Part shown: piece after piece, positions 49,409 to 64,000 of the stretch
Layout of the letters: every line of letters begins with the position of its first letter
How positions within the stretch are numbered: the stretch's first letter is position 1
Source: Myxococcota bacterium
Lineage (GTDB): Bacteria > Myxococcota_A > UBA796 > UBA2385
DNA: 64,000 nucleotides
Assembly: GCA_044344255.1 (NCBI GenBank)
Contig: JBIJDH010000004.1
Coordinates: 192,001 to 256,000, forward strand
Direction of reading: 5' to 3'
Notes under the pieces: model-generated
What the model saw: only the letters and a program-made list of their open reading frames with translations
Database searches by the model: none
What the model was told of the DNA's origin: nothing
Program-made: the position numbers and the translations under genes

Positions 49409-50002
49409 TCAGCCCCGCTCGTCGGTGGATTGTATGATCCAGTCCATGGCCATGTTGTCGAGCAGGGCGGCGCCAGCGTCGTCCTCTGGGGAGAGCGCGG
49501 CCCGGGCCTCGGCGAGGCGGCCGAGCAGCGGAGGGTCGGCCAGCTCGCCGAGGGGGGGGCTGGTGAGCGCGCCCTGCCAGCGCCCCTCGACGAAGGTGTC
49601 CTGGATGGGCAGGCCTCCGCCGCGCTTGAGCGCGAAACAAGGGGTGCCGAAGCAGCGCAGCAGGCGGCCGAGGGCGTCGTCCCGCGCCGCCGCTCCGGCG
49701 AGCACCGCGACCACGGCCGCCTCGGGGTCGTCCTCCTCGGCGGGCTGGCTGAGGGCCCAGAGGCCGTAGAGCCCCGACCAGGCGAGGGCGGGGTCTGCGG
49801 CCCAGCGTGCGGCGCCGTCGCCGAGCACCCAGGCCCGGAGCTGACGCACGGGGCCGAAGGTGGCGAGCGCCTCGCTGACCTGCTCGATCACCTCGAGGTC
49901 GTCGAAGGCCTGGGCGGGCAGGACGCGGGTGTCGATGACCACGCCGCCGGAGCGCAGCCGGGTGAGGAGGGCGGCCGAAGGGCGAAGGGTGGGGGATGCC
50001 AT
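49409..50002 (-). CDS. Hypothetical protein
   Basis: Fills the gap upstream of pntA with genome-typical codon usage; no domain recognised. Confidence 0.55.
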   Translation of the reverse strand: MASPTLRPSAALLTRLRSGGVVIDTRVLPAQAFDDLEVIEQVSEALATFGPVRQLRAWVLGDGAARWAADPALAWSGLYGLWALSQPAEEDDPEAAVVAVLAGAAARDDALGRLLRCFGTPCFALKRGGGLPIQDTFVEGRWQGALTSPPLGELADPPLLGRLAEARAALSPEDDAGAALLDNMAMDWIIQSTDERG

Positions 50003-50057
50003 CGGGGGCTCCAGGGCGGGTGCCTCTGTTATGCTGGCGGAGCGAGGAGCACCCGCC

Positions 50058-52190
50058 ATGACCCTGGACCCCCGATTCTTCCCCGTTCATCGACGGCTCG
50101 CCCTCGGGGCGCTGCTCGGGTTGGCCGCCTGCGCGGGCGGCGAGGCCGGGAAGGGTGGCGCGGCCGGTGAAGGGGGCGTCACCGGCCAGGACCGTGACCT
50201 CGACGGCTACTCGGGGCTGGACGACTGCAACGACGAGGACCCCGCCGTTCACGTGGACGCCGCCGAGATCTGCGACGGCGTCGACAACAACTGCGACGGG
50301 GAGGTGGACGAGGGTGTGCTCACCACCTGGTACAGCGACCTCGACGACGACGGCTTCGGCGACGCCGCGAGCCCCATCGAGGCCTGCTCTCCGGATGAGG
50401 GCATGGTGACGAACGACACGGACTGCGATGACGACGAGGAGCGGGTCTACCCCGGTGCTTATGACGCCTGCGACGGCCTCGACAACGACTGCGACGGCGA
50501 GATCGACGAGGCGGAGAGCGTCACCTGGTACGCCGACGAAGACGGGGACGGCTACGGTGACCCCGCCGCCTGGGTCGAGGCTTGCGCCGCCCCCGACGGC
50601 TACACGCGCGACGATCAGGACTGCGACGACACCACCGCGGCGGCCGCCCCGGCGGCCGCGGAGGTCTGTGATGAGATCGACAATGACTGCGACGGTGACA
50701 TCGACGAGGCCGTGACCTCCACCTACTACGAGGACCGCGACGGAGACGGCTGGGGCCTCCTCGCCGAGACCACCGAGGCCTGCACCCGCCCCACCGGCTA
50801 CTCGGTCGACGCCGGGGACTGTGACGACACCGACGTCGCCTACAACCCCGACGCGCTCGAGCTCGACTGCACCGATCCCCACGACTACAACTGCGACGGC
50901 AGCGTGGGCTACGCCGACGCCGACGGGGACGGCTGGGCCGCCTGCGAGGACTGCGACGACAGCGACGCCCTCGTCCGCCCCGACGGCCTCGAGGTCTGTA
51001 ACGGCGTCGATGACGACTGCGACACCCTCATCGATGACGCGGACCCCTCCGCTGACCTCAGCACCGGCTCCACTTGGTACGCCGACGCCGACGGGGACGG
51101 CTTCGGGGACGCCGGCGTCGCCGTCTCGGCCTGCGGGGCGCCGTTCGGCTACGTCTCGAACACGCTCGACTGTGATGACCACGACAGCCTCGTGAGCCCC
51201 AGCGCCACGGAGATCTGCAACGAGATCGACGATGACTGCGACGGGGACATCGACGGGGACGACAGCTCCGTCGATCTGTCCACGGGTGTGGTGTCCTACG
51301 CCGACGTGGATGGAGATGGGTACGGCGACGCCGCCGCCCCCGCCGAGGGCTGCGTGATCGAGGCCGGCTACGTCGACAACGACTCCGACTGTGACGACGC
51401 GGCGGTGGCGGTCAACCCGGCGGCGATCGAGGTCTGTAATGGTTACGACGACGACTGCGACCTGGCGATCGATGACGCGGACGGCAGCCTCAGCCTCGGC
51501 TCGGCCGGCACCTGGTATCAGGACAGCGACGGCGACGGCTACGGGCTCAGCAGCTCCACCACCCGCGCCTGCCTCGAGCCCGCCGGCTACGCCGCTTCGA
51601 GCGCGGACTGCGACGACGGGGCCGGGGCGGTCCACCCGGGGGCCACCGAGGTCTGTGACGCCGTAGACAATGACTGCGACACGAGCGTCGACGAGGGCTG
51701 GGACGCGGACGGAGACTCGATCACCGACTGCAAGGAGATCTCCCACACGGTGACGCTCTACCTCTCCGTCGATGACGCCTGGAGCGGCTACATCGACGGG
51801 ACCTCCATCGGCTCGGGGGGCGGCTGGTCCACCGTCCACACCATCACGAGCACCCTCGACTCCGGTGACCACGTGCTCGCCATCTACGGTGTCGACACGG
51901 GAGCGGCCATCGCGGGCTTCCTGGCCGCCGTCTACATCGATGGGAGCCTGTACTCGGTCTCGGGAGACGGGAAGTGGAAGGTCGGCGCCTCTGGCCCCAG
52001 CGGCTGGACCACGGCCGCGTACAACGACGCCGCCTGGGGCACCGGCACGGCCTGCACCGCCTCCCAGATGTCGACCTACTGGGGAGGGGCGCCGGCCAGC
52101 CTGCGGGCCACCGGCGCCTCCTGGATCTGGTCGCAGAGCTGCACCAGCCTTGGGGCGGGCTACTTCCGCTTGAACCTGACCTTGCCCTGA
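50058..52190 (+). CDS. Lipoprotein with eight MopE-like Cys/Asp metal-binding repeats and a C-terminal lectin-like beta-sandwich
   Basis: GAGGAG RBS; lipobox LAAC; eight DxDxDG...DC(D/N)D...C...DxxCD units; tail SVDDAWSGYIDG...HVLAI...AGFLAA...WK...GWTTAAYNDAAW...WIW. Confidence 0.88.
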   Translation: MTLDPRFFPVHRRLALGALLGLAACAGGEAGKGGAAGEGGVTGQDRDLDGYSGLDDCNDEDPAVHVDAAEICDGVDNNCDGEVDEGVLTTWYSDLDDDGFGDAASPIEACSPDEGMVTNDTDCDDDEERVYPGAYDACDGLDNDCDGEIDEAESVTWYADEDGDGYGDPAAWVEACAAPDGYTRDDQDCDDTTAAAAPAAAEVCDEIDNDCDGDIDEAVTSTYYEDRDGDGWGLLAETTEACTRPTGYSVDAGDCDDTDVAYNPDALELDCTDPHDYNCDGSVGYADADGDGWAACEDCDDSDALVRPDGLEVCNGVDDDCDTLIDDADPSADLSTGSTWYADADGDGFGDAGVAVSACGAPFGYVSNTLDCDDHDSLVSPSATEICNEIDDDCDGDIDGDDSSVDLSTGVVSYADVDGDGYGDAAAPAEGCVIEAGYVDNDSDCDDAAVAVNPAAIEVCNGYDDDCDLAIDDADGSLSLGSAGTWYQDSDGDGYGLSSSTTRACLEPAGYAASSADCDDGAGAVHPGATEVCDAVDNDCDTSVDEGWDADGDSITDCKEISHTVTLYLSVDDAWSGYIDGTSIGSGGGWSTVHTITSTLDSGDHVLAIYGVDTGAAIAGFLAAVYIDGSLYSVSGDGKWKVGASGPSGWTTAAYNDAAWGTGTACTASQMSTYWGGAPASLRATGASWIWSQSCTSLGAGYFRLNLTLP

Positions 52191-55938: not shown

Positions 55939-56096
55939 TGACGCGCTTATCCCCGCCCCTCGGGGGGCGCACGCTGACCCGGGTCGGGGATCTGTGAGGA
56001 GCTTGATCCGCGACCCTGGCGCGGCTACGCGGGAGAGGCCCCGCCTTCGGTCGGGCCGCCGCGGCCTTCGTGGCGATCTCCTTCGGAGGAGCACGC

Positions 56097-57716
<1,620 letters not shown>

Positions 57717-57724
57717 CGCGGCGC

Positions 57725-57766
57725 GGCGGACGGCGGACGGCGGACGGCGGAGGGCGGACGGCGGCT
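57725..57766. repeat. 7-bp intergenic tandem repeat x6 (GGCGGAC)
   Basis: Four exact and two variant units between the convergent kinase and GNAT stops. Confidence 0.85.
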
Positions 57767-58227
57767 CAGGCGAGCGATCGACAGTAGGTGACGCAGTCGT
57801 CCCCGGGCTGGTAGTAGTCCTTCACCCGCCCCACCTCGAGGTAGCCGGCCTCCTCGTAGAAGCGCCGTGTGCGCGCATAGTCGGGGCGACCGCTCGTCTC
57901 GAGCACGAGCCTCGCGCCACCGCGCTCCGTCACCAGCGCCTCCCCCGCCGCGAGCAGGTTGCGCCCGCTGCCGAGGCCTTGGGCCTCCGGGCTGACCGCG
58001 ATCCAGTAGAGGTGCCAGGAGGAGCGGGTCGCGGCGATGGGCCCGACGCAGATGTAGCCGATGACGCTCCCGCCGCGCTCGAGCACGAGGTGGGGGTAGG
58101 CGTCGGTGGACAAGCCAAGCTGCATCACCTCGAAGGCGAGCGCCTGCTCTTCGAGGGAGAAGGCGCCGCAGCGGCGGGTGATCGGGAGCAGGTGCTCCAC
58201 ATCGGACAGCAGCATGGGGCGGATCAT
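57766..58227 (-). CDS. GNAT family N-acetyltransferase
   Basis: VIGYICVGP, WHLYWIAVSPEAQGLGSGR (motif A), ETSGRPDYARTRRFYEEAGY; ATGA overlap with the upstream gene. Confidence 0.92.
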   Translation of the reverse strand: MIRPMLLSDVEHLLPITRRCGAFSLEEQALAFEVMQLGLSTDAYPHLVLERGGSVIGYICVGPIAATRSSWHLYWIAVSPEAQGLGSGRNLLAAGEALVTERGGARLVLETSGRPDYARTRRFYEEAGYLEVGRVKDYYQPGDDCVTYCRSLA

Positions 58228-59132
58228 CGCGCGATCTCCACCTGGAAGCGGATGAAGTCGGCCCAGGACCATCCTGCAGAGAGCACGGCCCGCGCCATTC
58301 CCGAGGTGGAGGTGAGCCCGTCGTCGGGGGTGAGATCGGGGTTCGGGTTCACGTCGATCACCCGCGGTCGGCCCTCGGCGTCGAGCCGCAGGTCCATCCT
58401 CGCGTAGCCCCAGAGCCCGATCGCCGCCCAGGCCCCGCGGGCCGCTTGGAGCAGCTCCGCCGCCAGCGCCGGCGAGACGTCGGCCGGGTACGTGGTCGTG
58501 GTGCCCCGATAGTCGTCGCTGGTGGGGAGCCACTTGGCCTCCCACGTCAGGAAGGGCCGGTGCGCCGGGAAGCGGACCTCGCCGACGGCGGCGTGCTCCG
58601 CCTCGCGCCCCCAGAGGGCCACCACCAGCTCCCGGCCGGGCAGGTAATCCTCGACCACCACCTCGCCGAGCCGGGCGCGCTGGGCCTCCACCTCGGTCGC
58701 GTCCCGGCAGAGGCAGCCGGCCTCGATGCCCGCCGAGCCGTGCTCCGCGACGGGCTTGACGAAGGCCGGCAGGCCCCCAGAGCCGGGGATGGGCACGCTG
58801 GCCGCGCGCAAGAGGGCCCGCACGCGGTCTTTGCGGTGACAGAGGGCGAGGGCCTCGCTGCCCGCGCCGGTGTGCCGCTGCCCGAGCCATGCGAGCAGCG
58901 CGGGGACGTGCGGCTCCCAGGTCGGCACGCCGCAGGGCGCCTCGCAGAGGTTGAAGACCACGTCGGGGCGGTGGCGGTGGAGCAGGGCCAGGAGCTCGCC
59001 CGGCTCACCTCGGACCCCCTCCACGACCACGTCTTCGAGGGCGGCGGCCACGCCGGCGGCGGGGAGCGAGAGGTCGGTGTCGATGAGGGTGGGATCGGCG
59101 GGCAGGGTGTGCAGGACGAGCGTGCGGGTCAC
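58224..59132 (-). CDS. ATP-grasp ligase, D-Ala-D-Ala ligase-like
   Basis: PDVVFNLCE, HTGAG, FVKPVAEHGSAGI, VEDYLPGREL, YARMDLRLD, IDVNPNPDL; lacks the N-terminal GG.S.E motif of true Ddl. Confidence 0.85.
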   Translation of the reverse strand: MTRTLVLHTLPADPTLIDTDLSLPAAGVAAALEDVVVEGVRGEPGELLALLHRHRPDVVFNLCEAPCGVPTWEPHVPALLAWLGQRHTGAGSEALALCHRKDRVRALLRAASVPIPGSGGLPAFVKPVAEHGSAGIEAGCLCRDATEVEAQRARLGEVVVEDYLPGRELVVALWGREAEHAAVGEVRFPAHRPFLTWEAKWLPTSDDYRGTTTTYPADVSPALAAELLQAARGAWAAIGLWGYARMDLRLDAEGRPRVIDVNPNPDLTPDDGLTSTSGMARAVLSAGWSWADFIRFQVEIAR

Positions 59133-59270: not shown

Positions 59271-60752
59271 GTGAACAGCACCCAGGACGCCGCTCCGCTC
59301 TTTGCTTCACGCCGCAGCGAGGCTGGGGGCGATCGGCTCGCGTTGTCCCTGGTCTGGTCGCGGGAAGAGCCCCACCGTGTCGGAGAGATCGTGCTCCCCG
59401 GCCCCACGCCAGCGGTCCTCGGTCGCGGGCCGGCGCTCGGCGCGGGTCGCCTGGGCCTCGGGCGCGCCCGCCCGGGCTCGACGTGGGACCCCTCCCAGCT
59501 CGGCTCACCGCGCATCTCTCGAGACCAGCTTCGACTGTGGACCGAGGGCGGGAGCCTCCGCGTCGAGAACGTGGGGCGCTGCCGGCTGCTCGTTGATGGC
59601 GCGGCGGTGACCGAGGTCACCGTCGACCCGCACGACCAGGTCTTGCTCGAAGACGAGGCCCTCTTCATCGTCGTCCGGCGTCCCTGGCCGGTCACCGCCT
59701 GGAGCGCCACGCCGCGCCCGCCGCGCTTCCCCTTCGGAGAGGCGGATGAGGACGGGCTCGTCGGCGAGAGCCCGGCGATGTGGGCCTTACGCAGCCAGCT
59801 CGCCCTGCTCGGGCCGCGGGCCGCCCACGTCTTGGTGCGGGGCGAGAGCGGCACGGGCAAGGAGCTCGTGGCGCGGGGTCTCCACCGCCGGTCGACGCGC
59901 GCCTCCCGAGCGCTGGTCGCGCGAAACGCCGCCACCCTCCCCGCCACCCTGGTCGACGCCGAGCTCTTCGGAAACGCGCGGAACTACCCGAACCCGGGCA
60001 TGGCCGAGCGCCCGGGGCTCGTGGGTGAGGCCGATGGCGGCAGCCTCTTCCTCGATGAGTTCGCCGAGCTGCCGGTCGAGGCCCAGGCCCACCTCCTCCG
60101 CGTGCTCGACCAGGGGGAGTACCACCGCCTCGGGGAGGCCAAGGCCCGCGTGGCCGACCTCCGCCTGATCGCGGCCACCAACCGGCCAGAGACCGCGATC
60201 AAGCACGACGTGCTGGCGCGGATGCCGCTGCGGGTGGAGCTCCCCCCGCTCACCGCGCGCCCCGAAGACGTGCCCCTGCTGCTTCGGCACCTCCTCTTGG
60301 GCATCACCCGCCGCGATCCTGCGCTGATGGCCCAGCTCATCGGCCCCACCGGGCTCCCTCGCACCACGCCGGGCCTCATCGCGGGGCTCTGTCGGTGGCG
60401 GTGGACCACCCACGTGCGGGAGCTCGAGCAGCTCCTCTGGAGGGCGATCGGCGAGGCCACGGACGGCCTGCTCGACTGGCCCCGGGGCCTCGACGCCCGG
60501 CCCGCCGCCGCGCGGCCCGTCACGCCCCTGGGGCCGCTCGTCGATCCCGAAGAGGCGGAGCGGGGTGACGGAGACAGCGGTGGGGTCGATCCCGAGACCC
60601 TCGATCCCGCTCATGTGCAGGATGTCCTCGACGAACATGGGGGCCAACAGGAGCCCGCCTGGCGCGCCCTCGGGCTCGCGAGCCGGCATGTGCTCACCCG
60701 GCTCGTCAAGAAGCACGGGCTCCGGGTGCGGGGCCGCAGGGGCCCCGCTTGA
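59271..60752 (+). CDS. FHA-AAA+-Fis-HTH transcriptional regulator (bEBP-like, GAFTGA replaced by NYPNPG)
   Basis: FHA-like LGRG...ISR; GESGTGKELVA; ELFGNARNYPNPG; ADGGSLFLDE; RLIAATNR; WTTHVRELEQ; C-terminal AWRALGLASRHVLTRLVKKHG. Confidence 0.9.
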   Translation: MNSTQDAAPLFASRRSEAGGDRLALSLVWSREEPHRVGEIVLPGPTPAVLGRGPALGAGRLGLGRARPGSTWDPSQLGSPRISRDQLRLWTEGGSLRVENVGRCRLLVDGAAVTEVTVDPHDQVLLEDEALFIVVRRPWPVTAWSATPRPPRFPFGEADEDGLVGESPAMWALRSQLALLGPRAAHVLVRGESGTGKELVARGLHRRSTRASRALVARNAATLPATLVDAELFGNARNYPNPGMAERPGLVGEADGGSLFLDEFAELPVEAQAHLLRVLDQGEYHRLGEAKARVADLRLIAATNRPETAIKHDVLARMPLRVELPPLTARPEDVPLLLRHLLLGITRRDPALMAQLIGPTGLPRTTPGLIAGLCRWRWTTHVRELEQLLWRAIGEATDGLLDWPRGLDARPAAARPVTPLGPLVDPEEAERGDGDSGGVDPETLDPAHVQDVLDEHGGQQEPAWRALGLASRHVLTRLVKKHGLRVRGRRGPA

Positions 60753-63700
60753 CGAGCTGGGTACTCCCCGATCAGTTCGATGGGCTGCGGGTCGTGAGGG
60801 CGCTCGGCCGCGGGGGGATGGGCGCGGTTTACCTCGCGCACGACGTCGCCCTGGATCGCCCGACCGCCCTCAAGCTGATCAGCGCCGAGGAGCCCACGAG
60901 CGCGCTGCGTTCGCGCTTCCTCGTCGAGGCCCGCGCCCTGGCCCGGCTCCAGCACCCCAACGTGGTCGGGGTGTATCGGTTCGGTGAGGTCGATGGCCGG
61001 CCCTACCTCGCCTACGAGTTCGTCGAGGGGGGCTCCCTCGCCGGTGTGGGCCAGATGCCGTGGGTGCGGGCGCTGAGCATCTGCGCGCAGGTGGCCCGCG
61101 GTATGGCCGCCTCCCATGAGCGGGGGGTGGTGCACCGGGACATCAAGCCGGCCAACATCATGGTCGGCGTCGACGGGTCGGTGAAGCTGCTCGACTTCGG
61201 CCTCGCCGTCCTCGGCGCCACCGGAGATCGACCCGCCCAGGCCCTCACCCTCGACGGCCGCGTCGTGGGCACCCCCGCCTACATGGCCCCCGAACGCTGG
61301 CTCGGCGAGGCCCCCTCTCCGGCCGCCGACGTCTGGGCTTGGGCGATGGTCTTCCGCCTCCTGCTCACAGGCTCCCACCCCTTGGAGGGGGTGCCGGTCT
61401 CCGAGCTGCCGCGGGAGCTCACCCTCCGGGACCTCCCGCCCTGCAGCAGCGTCCTCCCCGACCTCCCGCCCGTGCTCTCCTCGCTGATCGATCGCTGCCT
61501 CTCCCGCTCGCCGGAGCGCCGGCCCCCCTCCGGCGTCGAGGTGCGGGACGCCCTGGAGGCGGTCACGGCGCTCCTGCTCCCCGCGGGCGGCGGCTCCCCC
61601 ACTGAGGGGCGCATCGGCCTCGTGGGGGCCTCCTTCTCGCGGGTGGCGCAGTCCGTCGAGCTCTTCTCCCGGCGCTTCTATGAGCGCCTCTTCGCCCTCT
61701 CCCCCGGCCTGCGCCCGCTCTTCCCGCTCGACATGTCGAGCCAACGCGACAAGCTGGTCGGCGCCTTGCAGCTCAGCGTACAGTCGCTGCGGGTGCCCGA
61801 GGTGCTGGTCCCCTTGCTTCGGGACCTTGGGCGGCGCCACGCGGCCTACGGGGTCGAGGCGCGGCACTTCGAGCCGGTGGGGGCGGCGCTGCTCGGCGCG
61901 CTGCAAGAGATCGAGGGCAGCGCCTGGACGCCGGCCCTCGCCCAGGCCTGGCAGGCCACCTGGGCCGATCTGGCGCGGCCCGTGCTCGCCGGCCTCGCCG
62001 AGGCGCGGGGAGGGGACACCCTGGGGATGCTCACCGAGGGCGGCGGCGCCATCGCCCGGGTCGCCCTGCCCACCCACCTGCCCCTCTCCGGGCCCTCGGC
62101 GATGGCGACCCCCGCCAGCGACGCCCGCGCCCCCTCGCTCCCGCCGCGGGGCGCAACGCCCTCCAACGGCCCCGGGGCCTCCCGGCCGCCGCTCTCCGCG
62201 CCGCCCCGCGCCTCCGGCTCGTCCCCGCCCCCCTCGCTGCCGTCGCCCTTGACCCGCTTCTTCGGCCGCACGCGGGAGCTCGAGGAGCTCGTCGCCCAGG
62301 TGGCCGAGGGAGTGCGGCTGCTCACGATCCTCGGCATGGGCGGCTCGGGCAAGACCCGCCTCGCCCTCGAGCTCGCCCGGCGCCTGCACGCGGCCAGCCT
62401 CGGACGGCCGGTCGTCTGGGTGGCCCTCGCCGACGCTCGCGACCACGAGGGGGCCCTCTCCCTGATGTTGCGGGCGCTCGGGGTCAAGGACGCCCAAGGC
62501 GAGCCCCTCGATCTCCTCATCGAGACGCTCCACACCCGCCCAGCGCTGATCTTCCTCGACAACGTCGAGGACATCGCCGATGAGCTCGGCGACAGCCTCA
62601 GCGGCGTGCTCGAGCAGTGTCCGGACGCCACCTGCATCATCACCTCCCAGCGCCCGCTCCACATCATGGGGGAGCTGCTCTACCGCCTCGAGCCGCTGCC
62701 GCTGCCCTCCGCCGACGCCGCGACCCTGGAGATCGAGGCCAGCGACGCCGTCGCGCTGCTGATCGACCGCATCCGCCTGCAGCGCCCCACCTTCCGGCCC
62801 GATCCCACCTCGCTCCCGCAGCTCCTGGCGTTGGCCCGCCGCCTCGACGGCATCCCGCTGGCCCTCGAGCTCGTGGCGGTGCGGGTGGGCAAGATGCAGC
62901 TCTCGTCGCTCATCGAGCGGCTGGAGCGTGATCTCGGGCTGATCGAGGACGGCGCCCGAAACCGCCCCGGCCGACAGCGCTCGCTCACCGCCGCGCTCCG
63001 GTGGACGGCCGAGCGCCTCGACCCCGAGCTCCGTGCGCTCTTCTCCGATCTGGCGGTCTTCCCCGGAGAGTTCGGCCTCGAAGACCTGCGCGAAGTGCTC
63101 GGCGTCCCGGTCACCCACGAGGAGCTGGAGTCGCTGATCGAGCACTCCCTCGTGGTGCCCGTCGGCGGCTCCGAGGGGCGCTATCGGATGCTGAGCACCG
63201 TGCGGGCCTACGCCGCCGGCCTGAGCTCTCCCGAGCGCAGCGCGGCCCTCCAGCTCGCCCTGGTCGAGATGATCACCTCGATGGCCGGGAAGTGGATCGA
63301 TCAGCTCGGCACCTCGGAGGCCCAGCGGAGCACCGCGCGCTTGGAGGCGAGCTGGTCCACCCTGCTCGCGGTGGTCGATCTGGCCACCCCCGAGCGGGCC
63401 GCGCACATCCTCGGCCGCGTCCCCGTCTTCGTGATGATGACGAAGCGCTTCGCCGATGTCCTACCCCGCATCGAGCGGCTCTTCGCCAGTGACATCCTGC
63501 CGAAGCTGAGCTCGGACGTGCGAGTGCGCCTCTGCCGGGCCGGCCACCGCCTCAACCTCGTCACCGGCCACGCCGATCGCACCGAGGCCTGGCGGCTCCA
63601 GCTCCTGCACTGCGCGGCCCTGCCGCTCTCGGAAGTCATTCGAGACGGCCTCGACGCCGAGCTCGGTCTCTCGGCCATGGAGCGGGGCAGCTATCGGGAG

Positions 63701-64000
63701 GCGCGCGAGATCTACCAGCGCCTGCGCGAGGGGGAGCAGCGCCGCGGGAACACGCGCCAGGAGGCCGTTCACGTGGACTCCCTGTCCCGTGTCGCCTTCT
63801 ACGCGGGTGATCTCCGGCTCGCGAATTCGCTGGCGGTCGAGTGCGCTGCGCTCGTGCACCAAGTGGCTGATCCGCAGCTCGCCGAGGCGAACCTCCGCAT
63901 GCGCATCGGCCTCCAGGCCGACCTCGAGGACGCCGAGGAGGTCGAGTCGCTCTACGACGCCCTCGTCGAGCTCCGGCGGGCCTCCGGACAGCCAGAGCGC
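60749..64000 (+). CDS. Ser/Thr kinase-globin-STAND NTPase-TPR fusion (3' end outside window)
   Basis: Absent from ORF track. TTG 60749 overlaps the upstream stop and the frame is open for 1084 codons. Kinase: LGRGGMGAVY, ALK, HRDIKPAN, DFG, GTPAYMAPE. Globin (~61601-62000): FYERLF..SP.LRPLF, QRDKL, LGRRHAAYGVEARHF, WT....AW. STAND: FFGRTREL, GMGGSGKT, LIFLDNVE, LDGIPLALEL, YRML; then TPR-like helices. Confidence 0.92.
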   Translation, partial: MTSWVLPDQFDGLRVVRALGRGGMGAVYLAHDVALDRPTALKLISAEEPTSALRSRFLVEARALARLQHPNVVGVYRFGEVDGRPYLAYEFVEGGSLAGVGQMPWVRALSICAQVARGMAASHERGVVHRDIKPANIMVGVDGSVKLLDFGLAVLGATGDRPAQALTLDGRVVGTPAYMAPERWLGEAPSPAADVWAWAMVFRLLLTGSHPLEGVPVSELPRELTLRDLPPCSSVLPDLPPVLSSLIDRCLSRSPERRPPSGVEVRDALEAVTALLLPAGGGSPTEGRIGLVGASFSRVAQSVELFSRRFYERLFALSPGLRPLFPLDMSSQRDKLVGALQLSVQSLRVPEVLVPLLRDLGRRHAAYGVEARHFEPVGAALLGALQEIEGSAWTPALAQAWQATWADLARPVLAGLAEARGGDTLGMLTEGGGAIARVALPTHLPLSGPSAMATPASDARAPSLPPRGATPSNGPGASRPPLSAPPRASGSSPPPSLPSPLTRFFGRTRELEELVAQVAEGVRLLTILGMGGSGKTRLALELARRLHAASLGRPVVWVALADARDHEGALSLMLRALGVKDAQGEPLDLLIETLHTRPALIFLDNVEDIADELGDSLSGVLEQCPDATCIITSQRPLHIMGELLYRLEPLPLPSADAATLEIEASDAVALLIDRIRLQRPTFRPDPTSLPQLLALARRLDGIPLALELVAVRVGKMQLSSLIERLERDLGLIEDGARNRPGRQRSLTAALRWTAERLDPELRALFSDLAVFPGEFGLEDLREVLGVPVTHEELESLIEHSLVVPVGGSEGRYRMLSTVRAYAAGLSSPERSAALQLALVEMITSMAGKWIDQLGTSEAQRSTARLEASWSTLLAVVDLATPERAAHILGRVPVFVMMTKRFADVLPRIERLFASDILPKLSSDVRVRLCRAGHRLNLVTGHADRTEAWRLQLLHCAALPLSEVIRDGLDAELGLSAMERGSYREAREIYQRLREGEQRRGNTRQEAVHVDSLSRVAFYAGDLRLANSLAVECAALVHQVADPQLAEANLRMRIGLQADLEDAEEVESLYDALVELRRASGQPER

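Follow-up and report, generated by a model that had tools for sequence, protein, structure and literature searches.

In a 64,000-nucleotide stretch of DNA from a Myxococcota bacterium (contig JBIJDH010000004.1, positions 192,001 to 256,000 of the forward strand; hereafter, the window), one open reading frame (ORF) encodes a Hanks-type Ser/Thr kinase followed directly by an F-family globin, an AfsR-type signal transduction ATPase of numerous domains (STAND), and a helical tail. Judged by sequence comparison, the conserved unit is the kinase-globin pair, not a whole resembling the nucleotide-binding leucine-rich repeat receptors (NLRs), and the STAND form is a rare offshoot of a larger family. 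This kinase-globin family of myxobacteria is apparently undescribed. Our reading, to which we give a probability of about 0.55, is that the protein is a soluble one-component Ser/Thr kinase regulated through haem by gas or redox state, with a swappable second regulatory module, and that an FHA-like activator encoded upstream reads its output. The features on which this account relies are as follows.

59271..60752, plus strand: sigma-54-type enhancer-binding protein with an FHA-like N-terminus and an AAA+ domain (Sigma54_activat, E 3e-39; NYPNPG loop)
60749..64000, plus strand, running on to window-equivalent 64480 (G000:C59:252749-256480): kinase-globin-STAND-helical repeat ORF, 1243 amino acids
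60773..61579, plus strand: Hanks-type RD Ser/Thr kinase (Pfam Pkinase; catalytic residues invariant in the alignment; PknB fold)
61598..62005, plus strand: F-family 3/3 globin without a D helix, HGbI/HGbRL-like (Pfam, PDB alignments, AlphaFold2 model, family conservation)
62009..62236, plus strand: Pro/Ser/Ala-rich linker, probably disordered (its length varies in the alignment of the four STAND forms)
62237..63238, plus strand: AfsR-type STAND nucleotide-binding oligomerization domain (NOD) (motifs, weak Pfam matches, PDB match, tree)
63239..64000 (window part), plus strand: arm and TPR-like helical region, residues 831-1243 (homology to SARP-STAND tails)

The frame that starts at 60749 is open up to the end of the window and closes at a stop codon beyond it. 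Its TTG start codon overlaps the TGA stop of the upstream gene (TTGA), and the start occupies the identical alignment column in the closest homologue, P0003. G+C content at third codon positions is 0.91-0.97 in every domain. The DNA is present in 20 of the 23 sequencing runs listed (16 studies; lake, freshwater, and river metagenomes), among which there are no RNA runs. We compared contigs from four runs (X5, X11, X12, and X17). X5 and X12, from different studies, each have a single contig covering the entire ORF with zero indels, and X11 and X17 cover it piecewise, also with zero indels. Within the ORF, 12 of 13 variant sites are synonymous. The full architecture forms four clusters at 90% identity (P0002-P0005), and orthologues at 45-68% identity retain all of it; P0004 is from a metagenome-assembled genome labelled Myxococcota, and an identical protein occurs in G455, a genome of the same order as that of the window. 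A stricter first-look screen found the full architecture in at least 2 of 182 genomes of the class, which supports the rarity of the architecture. A metagenome-assembled source and a rare architecture are what might be expected of an assembly chimera or a decayed accidental fusion. However, whole-ORF contigs from two independent studies, free of indels, rule out a chimera or frameshift between domains, and together with the synonymous variation and the orthologues they leave this explanation a negligible probability. The gene is intact, genuine, and well conserved. The domain order and landmark residues that the initial annotation had traced from 60749 all lie where it placed them. It had also reported that the ORF track missed the gene; this is probably a window-edge effect, because public collections already call the 1243-aa protein.

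The kinase is a complete one. Pfam Pkinase matches residues 15-259 (E 5e-41), and the Gly loop, the VAIK Lys (K42), the alphaC Glu (E60), HRDxKxxN (HRD129-131, K133, N136), DFG149-151, GT174-175, APE180-182, and the subdomain XI Arg (R258) are all present, with T167 in the activation loop. Strict kinase motifs are retained in 95-98 of 100 near-complete family members, and a Leu-Thr pair lies within the activation loop in 79 of 107. An AlphaFold2 model of residues 1-424 built on a 73-row alignment, which replaced a single-sequence model with a mean predicted local distance difference test score (pLDDT) of 36, reached a pLDDT of 90.6 and a predicted template modelling score of 0.74. A fold search with the model returned PknB for the kinase (Z 31.2, root-mean-square deviation 2.0, 254 residues aligned); such searches were dominated by kinase matches and did not reach the globin. 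The motif set and the RD/activation-loop Thr layout identify the kinase, one of 101-106 kinase ORFs in the source genome, as catalytically competent at the level of sequence.

The globin is also well supported. Pfam Globin (PF00042) matches residues 309-408 with an E value of 1.4e-12 and 48.6 bits against a cut-off of 22, and the model contains seven globin helices, the D helix being absent. TyrB10 is residue 311 (61679), PheCD1 is residue 325 (61721), GlnE7 is residue 332 (61742), LysE10 is at 61751, and HisF8 is residue 364 (61838-61840); the G5 position holds Phe (61868) instead of Tyr. Thus the full 3/3 globin of the initial annotation holds up, as does its flavohaemoglobin/Vitreoscilla-type pocket, since the pocket residues agree with the HGbI and HGbRL alignments. 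The nearest solved sequences are HGbRL (3WFW, E 2.3e-20) and HGbI (3S1I and 3UBC, E 4e-16), followed by Vitreoscilla haemoglobin. Two other identities were rejected. A flavohaemoglobin (NO dioxygenase) is ruled out by the lack of a C-terminal FAD/NAD reductase module: Pfam and NCBIfam scans found no such domain in the protein, the NCBIfam flavohaemoprotein match covers the globin alone, and we saw no reductase among the neighbouring ORFs, where no reductase-profile scan was made. An S-family globin-coupled sensor is ruled out as well, for the globin is internal, follows the kinase, and matches Pfam Globin, with no Protoglobin match in the protein at E<=0.01. The source genome has one other globin of the HGbI-like type (G000:C81:38-523).

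Conservation across the family bears on what the globin might do. TyrB10 is kept in 120 of 122 fused globins, PheCD1 in 119, GlnE7 in 115, LysE10 in 107, and HisF8 in 121, and from these residues we predict that the domain binds haem b. Conservation of the four pocket residues first named (115-121 of 122) is consistent with the earlier idea that haem could gate the kinase. At G5, the fused globins have Phe or Leu in 113 of 122 cases and Tyr in 4, compared with Tyr in 122 of 126 free or otherwise fused globins; TyrG5 takes part in flavohaemoglobin chemistry. Arg298 of helix A is found in 118 of 122 fused globins and is outside the three commonest residues of free globins.

To characterize the family, we combined loci L001-L119 with the best matches from three lists (120 of 164, 150 of 17,638, and 120 of 1,682) and removed duplicates by globin sequence. 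The pool holds at least 122 distinct proteins with a globin directly after a kinase. What follows the globin varies: 93 have a LipJ-like alpha/beta hydrolase, 20 end within 45 residues, 4 have a STAND, and 5 have other or partial domains. Some of the short-tailed forms may be truncated by contig ends, but a complete two-domain gene of 480 aa (L113:6751-8193) lies within a 3.2-Mb contig. Arg258 and TyrB10 are 52-61 residues apart in 108 of 122 proteins. Of 90 hydrolases, 11 have Ser at the nucleophile position and 66 have Gly there, and the NCBIfam LipJ match for P0009 (E 1e-74) is below cut-off. Because the nucleophile is mostly lost in this commonest partner, the kinase is the only clearly intact catalytic output.

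Carriers are Myxococcota where named (Sorangium spp., Minicystis rosea, Polyangium, Kofleriaceae, Nannocystis, and Polyangiales, of which Sorangium and Minicystis are cultured); L006 is labelled only "Proteobacteria bacterium." With six candidates scored per genome, a contiguous match to the kinase C-lobe and globin was found in at least 4 of 401 genomes of the phylum, and the family is therefore patchy. The best 600 matches of a contig scan gave 80 loci, mostly with free globins, and are not a census; an ESM Atlas search with residues 200-430 gave low-score leads only. Automatic names from the Joint Genome Institute read "kinase/haemoglobin-like" for some members. Several other fusions came to light. 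P0224 (Polyangium sp. 15x6) continues from kinase-globin into two cyclic nucleotide monophosphate (cNMP)-binding domains and an aminotransferase class V domain, and three Sorangium kinase-globin-hydrolase proteins (P0353, P0357, and P0363) have a zf-HC2 (PF13490) match. P0253 fuses a globin to a soluble methane monooxygenase gamma-chain domain (PF02964, E 1e-26), and P0256 combines a Protoglobin domain with an F-family globin. In P0225 and P0250, by Pfam, an F-family globin is at or near the N-terminus of a long methyl-accepting chemotaxis protein (MCP); in L076, L116, L117, and L118 one is at or near the N-terminus of a long protein, in what by eye are chemotaxis operons.

Phylogenies of both domains were in agreement that the fused proteins are related. 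In a globin tree from a quick search (217 rows, 130 columns, multi-globin proteins excluded), all 80 fused globins tested fell inside one 90-row branch, with 98 in the Shimodaira-Hasegawa-like approximate likelihood-ratio test (SH-aLRT). The ten other rows in that branch comprise eight labelled free, some of which resemble kinase-globin fragments (P0193, P0223, and P0248), and two globin-MCP proteins. In a kinase tree, 63 globin-linked kinases formed one branch against 88 kinases of the window's own genome (98). When 140 globin-less database kinase domains were added and 12 of the 88 own kinases kept, the branch held (97) and took in 7 globin-less domains, which rules out a kinase subfamily that is exclusively globin linked. 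The STAND forms were nested among other kinase-globin forms in both kinase trees. P0020, a kinase-leucine-rich repeat-globin protein, has both its kinase and its globin outside the family and so represents an independent fusion.

The third module has the hallmarks of an AfsR-type STAND: Walker A (GxGGxGKT; residues 529-536, 62333-62356), Walker B (hhhhDNxE; LIFLDNVE, 62546-62569), GxP (62849), a winged helix, and a helical tail. The motifs reported for it by the initial annotation are thus all in place, while the AAA_16, NB-ARC, and nSTAND Pfam matches at residues ~500-620 are every one below cut-off; there is also a weak match to a plant NLR (9JBN, E 3.6e-4). As for the TPR-like helices also proposed there, the helical tail is homologous to the tails of two SARP-STAND regulators (29-31% identity), and Pfam support for TPR is sub-threshold (TPR_12, E 0.049 in the window's protein; E 2.8e-4 in P0004). 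The nucleotide switch appears unusual. The sensor-1 Arg senses the ATP gamma-phosphate, and the winged-helix LET motif is the equivalent of MHD. Here, sensor-1 reads TSQ, with Gln634 (62648) replacing Arg, and LST (63191) replaces LET. Gln occupies sensor-1 in all 4 kinase-globin STANDs, whereas the 104 other AfsR-type STANDs compared all have Arg there, and the LET Glu position is Ser in 4 of 4 versus Glu in 85 of 104; 69 further STANDs gave 64 Arg, 1 Gln, and 4 unparsed. Without the sensor-1 Arg, classical STAND switching is uncertain, and the Arg one position later (TSQR) may compensate.

In the STAND tree, the sister group of the four kinase-globin STANDs (SH-aLRT 99) consists of L242 and L243, two proteins of the same family and order with a winged helix-turn-helix/SARP-type N-terminus. 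Both sisters likewise have Gln at sensor-1, which makes the residue an old subfamily trait and rules out decay after the fusion. These SARP-type STAND-TPR regulators appear as a small, non-canonical STAND subfamily. The comparison supports the STAND-TPR part as a transplantable regulatory module, and the simplest history, with its direction read from an unrooted tree, would be that an AfsR-type regulator exchanged its DNA-binding effector for the kinase-globin unit. When metagenomes were scanned with the STAND alignment, the 80 loci recovered were generic AfsR-type ones (29-40% identity), and none of the 69 STAND ORFs parsed from them had a globin match. No PADLOC family matched the STAND-tail, and the neighbours are metabolic or regulatory with no defence island, so an anti-phage Avs-type NLR system was rejected. 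With a STAND in only 4 of 122 members and Gln at sensor-1, the NLR-like framing of the initial annotation is not supported.

The initial annotation did not mention the overlapping upstream gene for the FHA-like activator. In this protein the GAFTGA loop expected of sigma-54 activators is replaced by NYPNPG, a loop found in 2 of 34 sigma-54-type activators of the source genome. Of 401 genomes of the phylum, 42 encode close relatives, and all 29 non-self loci taken from the top of that list carry the motif. These loci (L121-L149) outline a Myxococcota activator subfamily with a degenerate FHA domain and N(Y/F)PN(P/A/V)G for GAFTGA, often adjoining a Ser/Thr kinase gene. Activators of this type may act on something other than sigma-54. 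HTH_8 was found in three homologues. The subfamily profile of the N-terminus matches GarA (E 3e-5), and Pfam FHA is matched at E<=0.05 in 11 of 32 members, the window's own activator not being among them. Of the FHA motifs, GR and SR are retained and the usual His and Asn-Gly are replaced.

Four of 10 kinase-globin loci (L001, L004, L005, and L006) have the activator within ~3 kb, in differing layouts; two of them, L004 and L006, have a free globin between it and the kinase-globin gene. Within the 1.5-kb flanks of 29 activator loci, a kinase profile matched in 8 and a free globin was present in 2; L108, which the globin search turned up, is a third such pairing of globin and activator. A kinase is nearby in 9 of 10 widened activator loci, a biased pick chosen as promising. 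At L150 the same parts occur unfused, as a tandem of a kinase-AAA_16 gene, a free globin, and the activator. By comparison, only 8 of 101 kinases of the window's own genome are within 1.5 kb of any sigma-54-type activator. Because kin are not independent, this co-location is suggestive only. It is plausible that the co-encoded activator is a candidate phospho-Thr reader downstream of the kinase. A search upstream of the two-gene unit for sigma-70-like promoters found none; it did not include sigma-54 sites. Farther upstream, the window encodes a 776-aa Asp/Cys-rich protein with DCDD-type repeats that is probably a secreted lipoprotein (49860-52190, plus strand), a second, unrelated Ser/Thr kinase (56070-57716, plus strand), and a GNAT and D-Ala-D-Ala-ligase-like pair whose transcription runs in the direction away from the activator-kinase unit (57766-59132, minus strand).

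We propose the following mechanism. The globin would bind haem b, with O2, NO, CO, or the redox state of the iron as the signal, and reversible LysE10 coordination, as in HGbRL, could be involved in sensing. Movement of the globin would alter autophosphorylation and hence kinase output. In the window's protein, phylogeny places the kinase-globin unit where an AfsR-type STAND-TPR regulator would have its effector; in function, the STAND-TPR module might add a second input or an oligomerization scaffold, with the sensor-1 Gln making for a non-canonical nucleotide switch. Phospho-Thr made by the kinase would then be read by the FHA-like domain of the NYPNPG-type activator, changing transcription, perhaps of the free globin or of other O2/NO-stress genes. 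A broader version, which we hold only tentatively and consider less probable than the reading above, is that these proteins are a dedicated myxobacterial class of haem gas receptors: a Ser/Thr kinase under the direct control of an F-family globin would signal through a NYPNPG FHA/AAA+ activator and accept plug-in inputs (pseudo-hydrolase, STAND-TPR, or cNMP-binding).

Several observations weigh against this mechanism. The usual His and Asn-Gly are missing from the FHA-like domain, and without GAFTGA the activator may not activate sigma-54. Six of the 10 kinase-globin loci (L003, L007/L009, L113, L114, L115, and L244) have no nearby NYPNPG activator, among them L244, the sole other STAND-type locus seen. 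The activator also adjoins many kinds of kinase and is thus no specific partner of globin kinases. We identified no interface residue peculiar to the family that touches the kinase. In the globin tree, the four STAND forms fall outside an inner 81-row branch of fused globins, with weak support (82) from only 130 columns. Finally, HGbI-type globins respond to fatty acids and pH as well, according to PMC11203436.

This last point leads to an alternative that we regard as unlikely, in which gating of the kinase by the globin responds not to a gas but to a lipid or fatty acid (or pH) in the haem pocket, with the serine-less LipJ-like hydrolase as a second lipid input. HGb-I, among the nearest solved relatives, binds oleate with a Kd of about 0.7 uM and changes its haem coordination (PMC11203436), and globins of the HGbRL group can hold a phospholipid (PMC4476040). 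The LipJ-like domain, present in 93 of 122 members with its catalytic Ser mostly absent, would fit such an input. Nevertheless, the gas-stabilizing TyrB10/GlnE7 pair is kept almost throughout, and hydrolase-free forms exist (20 short-tailed and 4 STAND). An NLR-like switch dominated by the STAND is improbable to a similar degree. Here, a TPR ligand would trigger ATP-dependent oligomerization and trans-autophosphorylation of the kinase, with the globin as a secondary modulator. Such a switch would draw on the intact Walker A, Walker B, and GxP motifs, on the sister proteins that bear a SARP-type N-terminus on the same STAND-TPR module, and on the precedent of PknK-like kinase-STAND proteins, which are counted as STANDs in PMC4381067. 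It is at odds with the scarcity of the STAND in the family (4 of 122), the replacement of both the sensor-1 Arg and the LET Glu, the sub-threshold TPR support, and the lack of a PADLOC match.

It is also possible, though a little less probable than either of these, that the globin is cargo, an O2 buffer or NO scavenger that is tethered to or regulated by the kinase and has no control over it. The globin does belong to the flavohaemoglobin-related family, whose best-known role is NO detoxification, and free globins of the same family adjoin Rrf2/NsrR-like regulator genes (by eye) in Myxococcota (L098, L103, L105, and L112). Yet the fused form has no reductase domain, has almost always lost the G5 Tyr, and keeps the kinase-globin spacing tightly.

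If a haem-gated kinase is indeed what these proteins are, O2/NO sensing would be linked to bacterial Ser/Thr phosphorylation through a globin-to-Hanks-kinase pathway, and the window's protein would integrate gas and a second ligand via an atypical STAND. To our knowledge, input signals have been identified for few myxobacterial kinases, though the kinomes are very large. A haem domain is a kinase input that can be set and read spectroscopically, and a compact gas-switchable kinase would follow. The natural 480-aa two-domain form and the homologues in cultured Sorangium and Minicystis make the model easy to test. We found no description of a globin-gated Hanks kinase, or of a globin fused to a bacterial Ser/Thr kinase, in the open literature searched, although tables of subscription globin and kinome surveys may list the architecture; the part of PMC7159879 available does not mention a globin.

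The protein is best understood by comparison with known systems. Globin-coupled sensors (HemAT-MCP and the diguanylate-cyclase, histidine-kinase, and adenylate-cyclase types) likewise place a haem globin and an output in one chain. In PMC7475203 and PMC1457004, sensor globins are N-terminal S-family domains fused to signalling outputs, which comprise chemotaxis, kinase (histidine kinase), cyclase, and gene-regulatory types. Here, by contrast, an F-family globin is C-terminal to its presumed output, a Hanks kinase. The closest likeness is to HGbRL and HGbI of Methylacidiphilum infernorum, which share TyrB10, GlnE7, LysE10, and the absence of a D helix. HGbRL, described as a putative sensor whose haem coordination is by Lys(E10) and His (PMC4476040), is fused to Roadblock/LC7 and HGbI is single-domain, and both have Tyr at G5 where the kinase-fused globins have Phe or Leu. 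Flavohaemoglobin and Vitreoscilla haemoglobin share the globin family and the distal pair, but here there is no reductase and the proximal G5 Tyr is lost. The eukaryotic haem-regulated eIF2-alpha kinase (HRI) is also a haem-responsive Ser/Thr kinase; its haem domain is not recognized as a globin in PMC1457004.

AfsR/SARP-type STAND regulators and Mycobacterium tuberculosis PknK likewise have a NOD, an arm, and a TPR-like tail behind an N-terminal effector; here, the effector is the kinase-globin unit, and the sensor-1 Gln is shared with the two SARP sisters. The likeness to PknB-type kinases of M. tuberculosis with their FHA partners, and to myxobacterial FHA enhancer-binding proteins, lies in the kinase fold and the co-encoded FHA-like sigma-54-type activator. 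Unlike PknB, the window's kinase is soluble and has no PASTA domain, and unlike the FHA enhancer-binding proteins, its neighbour has a degenerate FHA domain and NYPNPG for GAFTGA. LipJ, an alpha/beta hydrolase-cyclase, resembles the C-terminal module that most family members carry; this module is absent from the window's protein and has mostly lost its nucleophile Ser. Set against these systems, the protein would represent haem-based one-component sensing in a new form, assembled from known parts.

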